Shown here: positions 4,700 to 52,791 of the stretch, in pieces
Position numbering within the stretch: the stretch's first letter is position 1
Layout: the number at the start of each line of letters is the position of its first letter
Assembly: GCF_050920415.1 (NCBI RefSeq)
Contig: NZ_CP169309.1
Source of the DNA: Escherichia coli
GTDB taxonomy: Bacteria > Pseudomonadota > Gammaproteobacteria > Enterobacterales > Enterobacteriaceae
Strand: one strand, 5' to 3'
DNA length: 64,000 nucleotides
The notes under the pieces: generated by a model
The model's database searches: none
Told to the model about the DNA's origin: nothing
Seen by the model: the letters and a program-made list of their open reading frames with translations, nothing else
Made by a program: the position numbers and the translations under genes

Positions 4700-6100
4700 A
4701 TGAGCGTTGTGCCTGTAGCCGACGTACTCCAGGGCCGCGTAGCCGTTGACAGCGAAGTCACCGTGCGCGGATGGGTACGTACCCGCCGAGATTCAAAAGC
4801 TGGCATCTCCTTCCTCGCCGTTTATGACGGTTCCTGCTTTGATCCTGTACAGGCTGTCATCAATAATTCTCTGCCCAATTACAATGAAGACGTTCTGCGT
4901 CTGACCACCGGTTGCTCGGTCATTGTGACGGGTAAAGTCGTGGCATCGCCAGGCCAGGGGCAACAATTTGAAATTCAGGCCAGCAAGGTTGAAGTTGCTG
5001 GTTGGGTTGAAGATCCAGACACTTACCCGATGGCGGCAAAACGCCACAGCATTGAGTATCTGCGTGAAGTCGCTCACCTGCGTCCGCGCACAAACCTGAT
5101 TGGTGCCGTCGCGCGCGTTCGCCATACGCTGGCGCAGGCGCTGCATCGCTTCTTTAACGAGCAGGGATTCTTCTGGGTTTCAACGCCACTGATTACTGCG
5201 TCTGATACCGAAGGGGCTGGCGAAATGTTCCGCGTTTCTACGCTGGATCTGGAAAACCTGCCGCGTAACGATCAGGGCAAAGTGGATTTCGACAAAGACT
5301 TCTTTGGTAAAGAGTCTTTCCTGACCGTATCTGGCCAGTTGAACGGTGAAACCTACGCTTGCGCATTGTCCAAAATTTATACCTTCGGCCCGACTTTCCG
5401 TGCTGAAAACTCCAACACCAGCCGTCACCTGGCGGAATTCTGGATGCTGGAGCCGGAAGTGGCGTTTGCTAACCTGAACGATATCGCGGGTCTGGCTGAA
5501 GCCATGCTGAAATATGTCTTCAAAGCGGTTCTCGAAGAACGCGCTGACGACATGAAATTCTTCGCTGAACGCGTAGATAAAGATGCCGTTTCACGTCTGG
5601 AACGCTTTATTGAGGCCGATTTCGCGCAGGTGGATTACACCGACGCAGTGACCATTCTCGAAAACTGCGGCAGGAAGTTTGAAAACCCGGTTTACTGGGG
5701 CGTCGATCTCTCTTCTGAGCATGAGCGTTATCTGGCAGAAGAACACTTTAAAGCACCGGTAGTGGTTAAAAACTATCCGAAAGATATTAAAGCGTTCTAT
5801 ATGCGCCTTAACGAAGACGGTAAAACCGTTGCGGCTATGGATGTTCTGGCTCCGGGCATCGGTGAAATCATTGGTGGTTCTCAGCGTGAAGAGCGTCTGG
5901 ACGTGCTGGACGAGCGTATGCTGGAAATGGGCCTGAATAAAGAAGATTACTGGTGGTATCGCGATCTGCGTCGCTACGGTACTGTTCCGCATTCCGGTTT
6001 CGGTCTTGGTTTTGAACGCCTGATTGCTTACGTAACTGGCGTGCAAAACGTGCGTGATGTGATTCCGTTCCCACGTACTCCGCGTAACGCCAGCTTCTAA
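4700..6100 (+). CDS. asnS: Asparagine--tRNA ligase (class II aminoacyl-tRNA synthetase)
   Basis: ORF track 4655..6100; start chosen at ATG 4700 ([13 protein letters not shown]) giving 466 aa; class II motifs ([21 protein letters not shown]) visible. Confidence 0.95.
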
Positions 6101-6112
6101 TTTAGCGTCTTC

Positions 6113-6142
6113 AAGAGCCAGCACCCGCTGGCTCTTTTTTTA
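6113..6142 (+). terminator. Candidate rho-independent terminator downstream of asnS
   Basis: Seen directly: inverted repeat AGAGCCAGC-ACCC-GCTGGCTCT followed by a T-run (TTTTTTTAT) just after the asnS stop codon. Confidence 0.7.
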
Positions 6143-6490
6143 TCCTTTCTGTCAAGTTATCTGTTTGTTAAGTCAAGCAATCTATTTGCAACCCCGCCAT
6201 AACGATCATCCTGTTACGGAATATTACACTGCAACATTTGCGCACAAAAACTAATCCGCATTCTTATTGCGGATTAGTTTTTTCTTAGCTGATAGCACAA
6301 TTTTCATACTATTTTTTGGCGTTCTGGATGTCTGAACGAGGATTTAGTGTCAGGTCGATAAAGTTTCTATCAGAAACAAAATTTCCTTTTAGTTAATTTA
6401 AATATAAGGAAATCATATAAATAGATAAAAATTGCTGTAAATATCATCTCGCTTCTAAGGAAATATGACGGTGTTCACAAAGTTCCTTAA

Positions 6491-6557
6491 ATTTTACTTT
6501 TAGTTACATATTTTTTCTTTTTGAAACCAAATCTTTATCTTTGTAGCACTTTCACGG
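6491..6557 (+). promoter_or_regulatory. ompF promoter-proximal OmpR-binding region (F1-F3 boxes); candidate -10 AAAGAT around 6580; long 5' UTR at approx 6592-6701
   Basis: Sequence TTTACTTTTAGTTACATATTTTTTCTTTTTGAAACCAAATCTTTATCTTTGTAGCACTTTCACGG closely matches the ompF OmpR-box region as I recall it from the literature; sits about 150-210 bp upstream of the ompF ATG inside a ~600-bp AT-rich intergenic region. Confidence 0.6.
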
Positions 6558-6701
6558 TAGCGAAACGTTAGTTTGAATGGAAAGATGCCTGCAGACACAT
6601 AAAGACACCAAACTCTCATCAATAGTTCCGTAAATTTTTATTGACAGAACTTATTGACGGCAGTGGCAGGTGTCATAAAAAAACCATGAGGGTAATAAAT
6701 A

Positions 6702-7790
6702 ATGATGAAGCGCAATATTCTGGCAGTGATCGTCCCTGCTCTGTTAGTAGCAGGTACTGCAAACGCTGCAGAAATTTATAACAAAGATGGCAACAAAGTA
6801 GATCTGTACGGTAAAGCTGTCGGTCTGCATTATTTCTCCAAGGGTAACGGTGAAAACAGTTACGGTGGCAATGGCGACATGACCTATGCCCGTCTTGGTT
6901 TTAAAGGGGAAACTCAAATCAATTCCGATCTGACCGGTTATGGTCAGTGGGAATATAACTTCCAGGGTAACAACTCTGAAGGCGCTGACGCTCAAACTGG
7001 TAACAAAACGCGTCTGGCATTCGCGGGTCTTAAATACGCTGACGTTGGTTCTTTCGATTACGGCCGTAACTACGGTGTGGTTTATGATGCACTGGGTTAC
7101 ACCGATATGCTGCCAGAATTTGGTGGTGATACTGCATACAGCGATGACTTCTTCGTTGGTCGTGTTGGCGGCGTTGCTACCTATCGTAACTCCAACTTCT
7201 TTGGTCTGGTTGATGGCCTGAACTTCGCTGTTCAGTACCTGGGTAAAAACGAGCGTGACACTGCACGCCGCTCTAACGGCGACGGTGTTGGCGGTTCTAT
7301 CAGCTACGAATACGAAGGCTTTGGTATCGTTGGTGCTTATGGCGCCGCTGACCGTACCAACCTGCAAGAAGCTCAACCTCTTGGCAACGGTAAAAAAGCT
7401 GAACAGTGGGCTACTGGTCTGAAGTATGACGCGAACAACATCTACCTGGCAGCGAACTACGGTGAAACCCGTAACGCTACGCCGATCACTAATAAATTTA
7501 CAAACATCAGCGGCTTCGCCAACAAAACGCAAGATGTTCTGTTAGTTGCGCAATACCAGTTCGATTTCGGTCTGCGTCCGTCCATCGCTTACACCAAATC
7601 TAAAGCGAAAGACGTAGAAGATATCGGTGATGTTGATCTGGTGAACTACTTTGAAGTGGGCGCAACCTACTACTTCAACAAAAACATGTCCACCTATGTT
7701 GACTACATCATCAACCAGATCGATTCTGACAACAAACTGGGCGTAGGTTCAGACGACACCGTTGCTGTGGGTATCGTTTACCAGTTCTAA
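6702..7790 (+). CDS. ompF: Outer membrane porin F
   Basis: 362-aa ORF; signal peptide [22 protein letters not shown]; C-terminal Phe (VYQF) typical of beta-barrel porins; recognised as OmpF. Confidence 0.96.
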
Positions 7791-7974: not shown

Positions 7975-9165
7975 ATGTTTGAGAACATTACCGCCGCTCC
8001 TGCCGACCCGATTCTGGGCCTGGCCGATCTGTTTCGTGCCGATGAACGTCCCGGCAAAATTAACCTCGGGATTGGTGTCTATAAAGATGAGACGGGCAAA
8101 ACCCCGGTACTGACCAGCGTGAAAAAGGCTGAACAGTATCTGCTCGAAAATGAAACCACCAAAAATTACCTCGGCATTGACGGCATCCCTGAATTTGGTC
8201 GCTGCACTCAGGAACTGCTGTTTGGTAAAGGTAGCGCCCTGATCAATGACAAACGTGCTCGCACGGCACAGACTCCGGGTGGCACTGGCGCACTACGCGT
8301 GGCTGCCGATTTCCTGGCAAAAAATACCAGCGTTAAGCGTGTGTGGGTGAGCAACCCAAGCTGGCCGAACCATAAGAGCGTCTTTAACTCTGCAGGTCTG
8401 GAAGTTCGTGAATACGCTTATTATGATGCGGAAAATCACACCCTTGACTTCGATGCACTGATTAACAGCCTGAACGAAGCTCAGGCTGGCGACGTAGTGC
8501 TGTTCCATGGCTGCTGCCATAACCCAACCGGTATCGACCCTACGCTGGAACAATGGCAGACACTGGCACAACTTTCCGTTGAGAAAGGCTGGTTACCGCT
8601 GTTTGACTTCGCTTACCAGGGGTTTGCCCGTGGTCTGGAAGAAGATGCTGAAGGACTGCGCGCTTTCGCGGCTATGCATAAAGAGCTGATTGTTGCCAGT
8701 TCCTACTCTAAAAACTTTGGCCTGTACAACGAGCGTGTTGGCGCTTGTACTCTGGTTGCTGCTGACAGTGAGACCGTTGATCGCGCATTCAGCCAAATGA
8801 AAGCGGCGATTCGCGCTAACTACTCTAACCCTCCAGCACACGGCGCTTCTGTTGTTGCCACCATCCTGAGCAACGATGCGTTACGTGCGATTTGGGAACA
8901 AGAGCTGACTGATATGCGCCAGCGTATTCAGCGTATGCGTCAGTTGTTCGTCAATACGCTGCAGGAAAAAGGCGCAAACCGCGACTTCAGCTTTATCATC
9001 AAACAGAACGGCATGTTCTCCTTCAGTGGCCTGACAAAAGAACAAGTGCTGCGTCTGCGCGAAGAGTTTGGCGTGTATGCTGTTGCTTCTGGTCGCGTAA
9101 ACGTGGCCGGGATGACACCAGATAATATGGCTCCGCTGTGCGAAGCGATTGTGGCAGTGCTGTAA
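7975..9165 (+). CDS. aspC: Aspartate aminotransferase (PLP-dependent, class I)
   Basis: 396-aa ORF; N-terminus [23 protein letters not shown] and [14 protein letters not shown] (PLP lysine region) recognised as AspC. Confidence 0.96.
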
Positions 9166-36877: not shown

Positions 36878-38638
36878 ATGACGCAAACATTTATCCCCGG
36901 CAAAGATGCCGCTCTGGAAGATTCCATCGCTCGCTTCCAGCAAAAACTTTCAGACCTCGGTTTTCAGATTGAAGAGGCCTCCTGGCTGAATCCCGTGCCT
37001 AACGTCTGGTCTGTACATATTCGCGACAAAGAGTGCGCACTGTGTTTTACCAACGGTAAAGGCGCAACCAAAAAAGCGGCGCTGGCTTCTGCACTCGGTG
37101 AATATTTCGAGCGTCTGTCTACCAACTACTTTTTTGCTGACTTCTGGCTGGGCGAAACCATCGCCAACGGTCCATTCGTGCATTATCCCAACGAAAAATG
37201 GTTCCCACTGACCGAAAACGACGATGTACCAGAAGGGCTGCTCGATGACCGTCTGCGCGCATTTTACGATCCGGAGAATGAACTGACCGGCAGCATGCTG
37301 ATTGACCTACAATCTGGTAACGAAGATCGTGGTATTTGCGGTCTGCCGTTTACGCGCCAGTCCGACAATCAGATCGTTTATATTCCGATGAATATCATTG
37401 GTAACCTGTACGTTTCTAACGGTATGTCCGCTGGCAATACCCGAAACGAAGCACGCGTCCAGGGGTTGTCCGAAGTTTTCGAACGCTACGTGAAAAACCG
37501 GATTATTGCTGAAAGCATCAGCCTGCCAGAGATCCCGGCAGACGTGCTGGCGCGTTATCCAGCGGTGGTTGAAGCGATCGAAACACTGGAAGCGGAAGGT
37601 TTCCCGATCTTCGCTTATGATGCCTCGCTTGGCGGTCAATATCCGGTGATCTGCGTGGTACTGTTCAATCCAGCTAACGGTACCTGCTTTGCATCCTTCG
37701 GTGCACATCCTGATTTTGGCGTTGCACTGGAACGTACCGTGACCGAGTTGCTGCAAGGCCGCGGTCTGAAAGATTTGGATGTGTTTACTCCGCCAACCTT
37801 CGATGATGAAGAAGTCGCTGAACATACTAACCTCGAAACGCACTTTATCGATTCCAGCGGTTTAATCTCCTGGGACCTATTCAAGCAGGATGCTGATTAT
37901 CCGTTTGTGGACTGGAGCTTCTCAGGCACCACGGAAGAAGAGTTTGCTACGCTGATGGCTATCTTCAACAAAGAAGATAAAGAAGTTTATATTGCCGATT
38001 ACGAGCATCTGGGCGTTTATGCTTGCCGCATTATCGTGCCTGGCATGTCCGATATTTATCCGGCAGAAGATCTGTGGCTGGCGAATAACAGCATGGGCAG
38101 CCATTTACGTGAAACGATTCTTTCACTCCCAGGCAGCGAGTGGGAAAAAGAAGATTACCTGAACCTCATCGAGCAACTGGATGAAGAAGGTTTTGATGAC
38201 TTTACTCGCGTGCGTGAGCTGTTGGGTCTGGCGACCGGGTCGGATAACGGTTGGTACACCCTGCGTATCGGAGAATTAAAAGCCATGCTGGCGCTGGCTG
38301 GTGGCGATCTGGAACAGGCTCTGGTCTGGACCGAATGGACGATGGAGTTTAACTCATCAGTATTTAATCCGGAACGCGCCAACTATTATCGCTGTCTGCA
38401 AACGTTGTTATTACTGGCACAGGAAGAAGACCGCCAACCACTGCAATATCTGAATGCCTTCGTTCGTATGTATGGCGCAGATGCCGTAGAAGCCGCCAGT
38501 GCGGCAATGAGCGGTGAATCGGCGTTTTATGGCTTGCAACCCGTAGATAGCGATCTGCACGCGTTTGCTGCACATCAGTCGTTGTTGAAGGCCTACGAAA
38601 AGCTGCAGCGCGCCAAAGCAGCATTCTGGGCAAAATAA
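36878..38638 (+). CDS. ycaO: YcaO-domain protein (ATP-dependent; implicated with RimO in ribosomal protein S12 methylthiolation)
   Basis: ORF track 36845..38638; start chosen at the ATG at 36878 (MTQTFIPGKDAALEDS), giving 586 aa; function from literature recall. Confidence 0.9.
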   Translation: MTQTFIPGKDAALEDSIARFQQKLSDLGFQIEEASWLNPVPNVWSVHIRDKECALCFTNGKGATKKAALASALGEYFERLSTNYFFADFWLGETIANGPFVHYPNEKWFPLTENDDVPEGLLDDRLRAFYDPENELTGSMLIDLQSGNEDRGICGLPFTRQSDNQIVYIPMNIIGNLYVSNGMSAGNTRNEARVQGLSEVFERYVKNRIIAESISLPEIPADVLARYPAVVEAIETLEAEGFPIFAYDASLGGQYPVICVVLFNPANGTCFASFGAHPDFGVALERTVTELLQGRGLKDLDVFTPPTFDDEEVAEHTNLETHFIDSSGLISWDLFKQDADYPFVDWSFSGTTEEEFATLMAIFNKEDKEVYIADYEHLGVYACRIIVPGMSDIYPAEDLWLANNSMGSHLRETILSLPGSEWEKEDYLNLIEQLDEEGFDDFTRVRELLGLATGSDNGWYTLRIGELKAMLALAGGDLEQALVWTEWTMEFNSSVFNPERANYYRCLQTLLLLAQEEDRQPLQYLNAFVRMYGADAVEAASAAMSGESAFYGLQPVDSDLHAFAAHQSLLKAYEKLQRAKAAFWAK

Positions 38639-38969
38639 AATCAAATAGCCTACGCAATGTAGGCTTAATGATTCGTCTGAGTTATATTACGGGGCGTTTT
38701 TTTAATGCCCCGCTTTACATATATTTGCATTAATAAAATAATTGTAATTATAAAGTTAAATATCGGTAATTTGTATTTAATAAATACGATCGATATTGTT
38801 ACTTTATTCGCCTGGTGCTCCCTTTTAATTAACTGTTTTAGCGGAGGATGCGGAAAAAATTCAACTCATTTGTTAATTTTTAAAATTTATTTTTATTTGG
38901 ATAATCAAATATTTACTCCGTATTTGCATAAAAACCATGCGAGTTACGGGCCTATAAGCCAGGCGAGAT

Positions 38970-38998
38970 ATGATCTATATCAATTTCTCATCTATAAT
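38970..38998 (+). promoter_or_regulatory. Candidate FNR half-site palindrome (ATGATctatATCAA) with adjacent TATAAT -10 hexamer in the focA-pflB upstream promoter region
   Basis: Seen directly: near-consensus TTGAT-N4-ATCAA at 38970-38983 and TATAAT at 38993-38998 in a ~400-bp AT-rich region upstream of focA; the pfl operon is known to be FNR-activated from multiple promoters. The spacing to the -10 is not classical, so the exact assignment is uncertain. Confidence 0.4.
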
Positions 38999-39043
38999 GC
39001 TTTGTTAGTATCTCGTCGCCGACTTAATAAAGAGAGAGTTAGT

Positions 39044-39901
39044 GTGAAAGCTGACAACCCTTTTGATCTTTTACTTCCTGCAGCAATGGCCAAAGTGGCC
39101 GAAGAGGCAGGTGTCTATAAAGCAACGAAACATCCGCTTAAGACTTTCTATCTGGCGATTACCGCCGGTGTTTTCATCTCAATCGCATTCGTCTTCTATA
39201 TCACAGCAACCACTGGCACAGGAACAATGCCCTTCGGCATGGCAAAACTGGTTGGCGGCATTTGCTTCTCTCTGGGGCTGATTCTTTGTGTTGTCTGCGG
39301 AGCCGATCTCTTTACTTCCACAGTGTTGATTGTTGTTGCTAAGGCGAGTGGGCGCATCACCTGGGGTCAGTTGGCGAAAAACTGGCTAAATGTCTATTTT
39401 GGCAACCTGGTCGGCGCACTGCTGTTTGTACTTTTAATGTGGCTTTCCGGCGAGTATATGACCGCGAATGGTCAATGGGGACTAAACGTCCTACAAACCG
39501 CCGACCACAAAGTGCACCATACTTTTATTGAGGCCGTCTGTCTTGGTATCCTGGCAAACCTGATGGTATGTCTGGCAGTATGGATGAGTTATTCTGGCCG
39601 CAGCCTGATGGATAAAGCGTTCATTATGGTGCTGCCGGTCGCGATGTTTGTTGCCAGCGGTTTTGAGCACAGTATCGCAAACATGTTTATGATCCCGATG
39701 GGTATTGTAATCCGCGACTTCGCATCTCCGGAATTCTGGACCGCTGTCGGTTCTGCACCGGAAAATTTTTCTCACCTGACCGTGATGAACTTCATCACTG
39801 ATAACCTGATTCCGGTTACGATCGGTAATATTATCGGCGGTGGTTTGTTGGTTGGGTTGACATACTGGGTCATTTACCTGCGTGAAAACGATCACCATTA
39901 A
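39044..39901 (+). CDS. focA: Formate channel FocA (formate-nitrite transporter family)
   Basis: ORF track 38705..39901 extends far upstream; start chosen at GTG 39044 (VKADNPFDLLLPAAMAK), giving 285 aa; FNT-family polytopic membrane protein. Confidence 0.88.
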   Translation: MKADNPFDLLLPAAMAKVAEEAGVYKATKHPLKTFYLAITAGVFISIAFVFYITATTGTGTMPFGMAKLVGGICFSLGLILCVVCGADLFTSTVLIVVAKASGRITWGQLAKNWLNVYFGNLVGALLFVLLMWLSGEYMTANGQWGLNVLQTADHKVHHTFIEAVCLGILANLMVCLAVWMSYSGRSLMDKAFIMVLPVAMFVASGFEHSIANMFMIPMGIVIRDFASPEFWTAVGSAPENFSHLTVMNFITDNLIPVTIGNIIGGGLLVGLTYWVIYLRENDHH

Positions 39902-52553: not shown

Positions 52554-52723
52554 AATGGCTCACTCAAGCTTGCTCACGATTGATTCCAGTAACAAACCGT
52601 ATTGTGTAATTATTTCTATAGCAGGTCGCTATATAGGTTTGTATACATCGAATGATTTGAAAATCAAAGAGATAGGCAGATTTTCACTCGAAAGTAGTAT
52701 TACGTGTAAGTGAGGAGTAATTA

Positions 52724-52737
52724 TTGTTCGGTATCAA
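52724..52737 (-). promoter_or_regulatory. Candidate FNR box of the dmsABC promoter (minus-strand TTGATaccgAACAA)
   Basis: Seen directly: TTGTTcggtATCAA on the plus strand, a near-consensus FNR site (TTGAT-N4-ATCAA) in the serS-dmsA intergenic region; the dms operon is known to be FNR-dependent. The distance to the dmsA ATG (~170 bp) implies a long leader. Confidence 0.45.
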
Positions 52738-52745
52738 AGGGAGAC

Positions 52746-52771
52746 AAAAAAAGCGCCCGAAGGCGCTTTTT
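52746..52771 (-). terminator. Candidate rho-independent terminator downstream of serS (symmetric, possibly bidirectional)
   Basis: Seen directly: AAAAAAAGCGCCCGAAGGCGCTTTTTAG, a GC stem flanked by A- and T-runs, just after the serS stop. Confidence 0.7.
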
Positions 52772-52791
52772 AGATTCAGAAAAATTGGGTA

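Follow-up and report, generated by a model that had tools for sequence, protein, structure and literature searches.

The OmpR boxes F1 to F4 of the Escherichia coli K-12 ompF promoter have been published by Gao et al. 2011 (Additional file 3; PMC3050692), with K-12 F4 reading GTTACGGAATATTACATTGC. Within F1, the bases described as crucial for OmpR are A4, C5, A14 and C15, together with a G11NNNC15 motif (PMC1489923), and the same paper describes a 5' UTR built of a stem-loop and a linker and a conserved 5' 13-mer of MicF that provides a major part of its pairing to ompF. OmpR is described as binding mainly through the DNA backbone, with few base contacts and degenerate sites, in the portion of PMC4397060 that cites Rhee et al. 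2008. In the established picture of the system, cooperative binding of OmpR-P at F1-F3 activates ompF transcription at low osmolarity, occupation of F4 at high osmolarity leads to repression, and MicF blocks ompF translation. The promoter itself is weak and dependent on its activator.

The locus described here lies in a 64-kb stretch of an E. coli genome (hereafter the window). Positions 6101-6701 of the window are an ordinary, textbook E. coli ompF regulatory region, one of the best-studied of bacterial promoters. The A found at 6502, within F1, is an allele of a common three-allele polymorphism that is already present in hundreds of public genomes.

The asnS-ompF spacer and its regulatory elements

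The upstream neighbour of the spacer is asnS (asparagine--tRNA ligase; 4700..6100, + strand), whose translation matches E. coli AsnS exactly. Downstream lie an intact ompF CDS of 362 aa (6702..7790, + strand, ATG at 6702) and aspC (7975-9165, + strand). This gene order is confirmed in the window by the ORFs and by the annotation of an identical record, NZ_CP169399.1, in which asnS is annotated up to the start of a 601-bp spacer and the downstream gene encodes porin OmpF WP_000977917.1; asnS-ompF-aspC is also the order in the Salmonella and Citrobacter loci. The initial annotation had placed the region between asnS and ompF, and ORFs, annotation and synteny all agree with that placement. It had further described a large AT-rich control region of ~560 bp, of which the AT-richness holds and the extent does not. 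The G+C content of 6143-6701 is 33.3%, against 50.8% window-wide, and is essentially the lowest among 559-bp stretches of the window sampled every 25 bases, so the description of a large AT-rich control region is accurate. However, the full spacer runs from 6101 to 6701 (601 bp), and the later start at 6143 is explained by the asnS intrinsic terminator having been skipped. That terminator (6113..6141, + strand) was found by a terminator scan and features a 10-bp G+C-rich stem, a 4-nt loop and a T-run, with a predicted fold of -17.8 kcal/mol (z -7.7). Next to it in AT-richness within the window, at ~35% G+C, comes the sequence between ycaO and focA (~38626-39200), which precedes focA-pflB.

Over its first 25 kb (1-25000) the window matches the chromosome of MFDS1022581 at 100% identity (NZ_CP169399.1, from its position 3,194,702), an E. 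coli strain from an animal-source food in South Korea. Identity of at least 99% over these 25 kb was found in only 9 of 5,426 genomes, which indicates that the strain is a member of a sparsely sampled lineage.

Box coordinates were obtained by alignment and by comparison with the published K-12 boxes, all on the + strand. F1, TTTACTTTTAGTTACATATT, occupies 6493..6512 (-100 to -81), and is followed by F2, TTTTCTTTTTGAAACCAAAT (6513..6532), and F3, CTTTATCTTTGTAGCACTTT (6533..6552), both of which are the same as in K-12. The three boxes are contiguous, at 20 bp each, and span -100 to -41 when numbered from the K-12 start site. The OmpR cluster reported in the initial annotation is thus present, with 59 of the 60 bases of 6493-6552 matching published K-12 F1+F2+F3; the box carrying the difference, which had been called proximal, is F1 and therefore the promoter-distal member of the cluster. 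Matrix scores in the window are 19.4 for F1, 8.95 for F2 and 11.0 for F3, and F3 is unchanged across all eight E. coli sequences aligned. The distal box F4, GTTACGGAATATTACACTGC, is found at 6213..6232 (about -380 to -361), 260 bp upstream of F1, and matches K-12 F4 at 19 of 20 bases.

In the interval from F4 to F1, at a distance of 105 bp from the asnS terminator on its downstream side, folding detects an inverted repeat (6246..6282, both strands) whose 15-bp arms pair perfectly around a loop of 7 nt and are flanked by A- and T-runs. Its predicted fold reaches -20.1 kcal/mol on the + strand and -19.7 on the - strand (z -7.7 and -6.7), and it looks like a bidirectional terminator. The right arm, TTATTGCGGATTAG, is kept in Salmonella and differs by one base in Citrobacter. 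Position 6251 is C in the window and A in most other E. coli sampled, where the A produces a mismatch at the base of the stem with no compensating change.

In K-12 the transcription start of ompF is taken to precede the ATG by 110 nt, which would place it at A6593 in the window. The core promoter (6581..6593, + strand), with its -10 hexamer AAAGAT at 6581-6586, was assigned by identity to K-12, and the alignment is the same as K-12 both at the hexamer and around the inferred start. A sigma-70 consensus scan did not detect the ompF promoter, as expected for a promoter that depends on an activator. The same scan returned a minus-strand match at 6441-6412 (TTTACA, 18-nt spacer, TATGAT; 10/12) that faces the opposite way to ompF; in a region as AT-rich as this one, as many matches of the kind would be expected by chance.

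From the alignment and the inferred start site, the ompF 5' UTR comprises 6593..6701 (+ strand), or 109 nt compared with 110 in K-12. Its predicted fold consists of a long imperfect stem-loop, then an A-run linker (6677-6683) and then the SD GAGG, with the A-run lying 2 nt upstream of the MicF target. The run is A7 in the window and A8 in K-12, and is polymorphic, with A7 also in IAI39, PA45B and 09A19CPO009, and A8 also in O104:H4, O157:H7 and NC101. The predicted UTR fold (-23.9 kcal/mol) is the same with A7 or A8, and the predicted MicF duplex is also unaltered. Duplex prediction places the MicF target at 6685..6712 (+ strand), a stretch that takes in the SD, the end of the UTR and the start of the ompF CDS and does not differ from K-12. 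K-12 MicF nt 1-33 is predicted to pair with 6685-6712 at -27.1 kcal/mol; this value applies to nt 1-33, as unrestricted prediction on full-length MicF makes the duplex too long. The initial annotation had equated a long 5' UTR with the MicF target. The long UTR (~109 nt) and the pairing at its 3' end are both recovered, but the target is not the whole UTR, since pairing is limited to its last 17 nt and to the 11 nt with which the ompF CDS begins. A search against Rfam found no RNA family in 5800-7000, even at E<=1, and no MicF match within the 64-kb window; the latter is expected, as micF adjoins ompC, far beyond the window. Gathering-level Rfam matches elsewhere in the window are STnc130 (52644-52778, + strand, 138.8 bits) and naRNA4/CssrE (291-369, - strand, 82.2 bits).

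Alleles at position 10 of F1

In the window, TTTACTTTTAGTTACAT has a single match, at 6493-6509 (+ strand), against 0 expected by chance. Pairwise alignment to K-12 MG1655 (NC_000913.3) gives TTTACTTTTGGTTACAT, with G in K-12 at the base that is A at window position 6502. This base is position 10 of F1, about -91 from the inferred ompF start, and is the sole difference from K-12 within the box. The initial annotation had suspected a one-base difference in F1 from the K-12 sequence that it gave and had proposed the alignment as the check, with identity as the refuting outcome; the K-12 sequence given proves to be correct, the two are not identical, and the observation stands. Over the 601-bp spacer there are 19 substitutions and one 1-nt indel relative to K-12 (96.7% identity). 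All but one of the 19 lie upstream of 6459, and 6459-6704 is the same as K-12 except for base 6502 and one A lost from the 6677-6683 run. The two regions share synteny, box positions, F2, F3, the -10 hexamer, the region of the inferred start and the MicF target, and, within the boxes and the UTR, differ at F1 position 10 (6502), at F4 position 17 (6229) and in the length of the A-run.

When the spacers of eight E. coli strains (the window, K-12, O104:H4, IAI39, O157:H7, PA45B, NC101 and 09A19CPO009) are aligned, three alleles are seen at -91. G is found in K-12 and O104:H4, and the exact 36-mer carrying it is present in 3,228 of 5,426 complete genomes. A is found in the window, IAI39 and O157:H7, and its exact 36-mer (6492-6527) is present in 833 of the 5,426 (~15%), including many O157:H7 genomes (e.g. 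EDL933), IAI39, an ST69 strain and ECONIH1. T is found in PA45B, NC101 and 09A19CPO009, and is the allele of the sampled B2 strains; one T haplotype, searched as an exact 81-mer, is present in 232 genomes, among them that of the type strain DSM 30083. The exact T-allele 36-mer gave no match, which is probably an effect of low-complexity masking of so T-rich a query, and the frequency of T is accordingly only bounded by the ~1,365 or fewer genomes in which the exact 36-mers of both A and G are absent. The substitution had initially been called strain-specific, which the breadth of the A 36-mer contradicts: an A at -91 in 833 genomes of several lineages is a lineage marker and not a private mutation.

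The window's exact 81-mer around F1 is found in 212 genomes, including IAI39 and CE10. IAI39, which is taken to belong to phylogroup F (the phylogroup labels of the sampled strains are our own assignments), shares with the window the A at -91, the ACC of F2, the C at F4 position 17 and the A7 run, and differs from it at six spacer positions (6123, 6251, 6350, 6368, 6449 and 6458). K-12's own exact 81-mer around F1-F2 is found in only 1,549 of 5,258 genomes, with other lineages differing at up to six positions.

Spacers of Salmonella enterica and Citrobacter werkmanii, taken from contigs of the AsnS 90% cluster, served as outgroups together with F1 of Yersinia pestis. Position 10 of F1 is A in Salmonella enterica (ATAACATTTATTTACATATT) and T in both Citrobacter werkmanii (ATAACATTTTGTTACACATT) and Yersinia pestis (TTTACATTTTGTAACACATA). 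As none of the three outgroups carries G, the allele of K-12 and of phylogroups A and B1 has probably arisen secondarily, and the A of the window would be of the ancestral type. From F1b to the ATG the region is nearly invariant across Escherichia, Salmonella and Citrobacter, which marks where constraint is strong, and position 10 is among the few columns that vary. At 6528 in F2, the window, K-12 and IAI39 have GAAACC and O104:H4, O157:H7, the B2 strains, Salmonella and Citrobacter have GAAACT; with GAAACT in both of these outgroups as well as in other E. coli, the K-12-type F2 also looks derived.

A scan of genome contigs with the pattern TTTACTTTTNGTTACATATTT returned 73 loci, mostly from Nostocales cyanobacteria and other AT-rich genomes, and none from Escherichia. 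The pattern occurs by coincidence inside a dispersed Nostocales repeat (Dolichospermum, Nostoc, Anabaena and Trichormus) that is unrelated to ompF, and of which one contig holds five copies ~109 bp apart (L069 3146-3601 is an example locus).

OmpR recognition of F1 and the significance of the variants

In the matrix of 24 OmpR sites of Gao et al. 2011 (PMC3050692), position 10 has the counts A6, C3, G3 and T12. Its information content is 0.25 bit of a possible 2, and few columns carry less. The F1 score is 19.0 for the G allele, 19.4 for A and 20.4 for T, so that G->A amounts to +0.4 bit, in a matrix that is built from only 24 sites, K-12 F1 among them, and that treats positions as independent; A and T score above G even though K-12 F1 belongs to the training set. 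Position 10 is also A in OmpR sites that have been defined experimentally, among them csgD GTTACATTTAGTTACATGTT and ompC C3/micF AAAAGTTTTAGTATCATATT (PMC3050692). The csgD site has TTTAGTTACAT in common with window F1, ompC C3 has TTTTAGTATCAT, and TTTAG is shared, whereas the sequences of half-site a differ and the sites belong to other promoters and contexts. The crucial bases A4, C5, A14 and C15 and the G11NNNC15 motif are all kept in window F1.

Position 6502 directly adjoins G11 of the GNNNC motif in F1b, where two OmpR protomers meet. DNA shape at this junction could matter for 6502, and OmpR may conceivably touch base pair 10 directly. Because of this proximity to G11 at the protomer junction, a small chance of a small real effect is retained. 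A literature search for the exact F1 string in its G, A and T variants found no paper, a search for ompF promoter variation in natural or ECOR isolates found nothing relevant, and PMC2763269 and PMC8597738 mention ompF and contain nothing on base 6502.

Two readings of the A at 6502 would confine it to this genome or to its assembly, and both can be set aside with near certainty. A substitution private to this strain would fit the rarity of the 601-bp haplotype, which reaches at least 99% identity in only 16 of 5,424 genomes, with a single identical copy (MFDS1022581). That rarity, however, stems from other positions, namely 6350, 6368, 6449 and 6458 (-243 to -135), where the window has substitutions found in no other of the eight aligned strains, and not from the F1 base; the A itself is carried by at least 833 genomes of several lineages and by Salmonella, so that the eight-strain alignment, the 36-mer count and the Salmonella sequence jointly refute a private origin. 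A sequencing or assembly error, for which no point in favour was found, is refuted by the occurrence of the same base in hundreds of independent complete genomes and by the 25 kb of the window that are 100% identical to the finished MFDS1022581 chromosome.

A third reading deserves more weight, and is nevertheless unlikely. The G, A and T alleles at -91, perhaps with linked variants in F4 and F2, may be functional cis-regulatory variants that tune the affinity of OmpR-P for F1 and thereby make OmpF levels or osmotic set-points differ between phylogroups. The site is next to the conserved G11, in the OmpR box of highest affinity, and the alleles follow the phylogroup labels assigned to the sampled strains, although a neutral marker would follow phylogeny too. 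The window itself carries a second change, the C at F4 position 17 (6229) that it shares with IAI39 where K-12 has T; in the matrix this position is T16 and C3, and the F4 score falls from 9.44 in K-12 to 7.67. For some further natural alleles of these boxes, larger effects are predicted. In the sampled B2 strains, the GTCAC form of F1 scores 15.3, or 9.3 in NC101, and F4 has a G at the nearly invariant position 16, with a score of ~1.5 (1.46) compared with 9.4 in K-12. Against a functional role for -91 stand the gain of only +0.4 bit at a position of 0.25 bit and the presence of A, T and G alike in functional OmpR sites. In 09A19CPO009 (L081), F1 reads TTTGCTTTTTGTCACACATT, with G at the "crucial" position 4 and a score of 11.0 compared with 19.0 in K-12, and the spacer lacks 21 bp immediately after the asnS terminator.

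The preferred reading, which is held with considerable confidence on the basis of sequence comparison, is that this is an ordinary ompF region in which A at 6502 is a common allele, at a position almost uninformative for OmpR, and most likely neutral or nearly so for binding and osmoregulation. Synteny, the F1-F3 cluster, the critical F1 bases, F4 and MicF complementarity, the defining sequence features examined, are all found in the window. The comparisons show that the sequences differ, how the alleles are distributed, which bases the outgroups carry and how little information the position holds; binding and regulation would be expected to be unchanged. The earlier suggestion that the substitution could subtly alter osmoregulation of ompF finds no support, as position 10 is nearly uninformative, the change is +0.4 bit and proven OmpR sites carry A.

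The significance of the 6502 variant is accordingly very small, since it is a common variant of a well-known promoter, at a position that OmpR barely reads. The B2 alleles of F1 and F4, with their larger predicted changes, are better candidates for variation in porin regulation than 6502, and could interest studies of such natural variation. It is also unlikely that the -91 site and the linked variants in F4 (positions 16 and 17) and F2 constitute phylogroup-specific cis-regulatory haplotypes, with the K-12 G derived and unrepresentative; if they did, E. coli lineages would have different OmpF expression levels or osmotic switch points. For the OmpR boxes of this promoter, K-12 appears to be neither an ancestral nor a universal reference.
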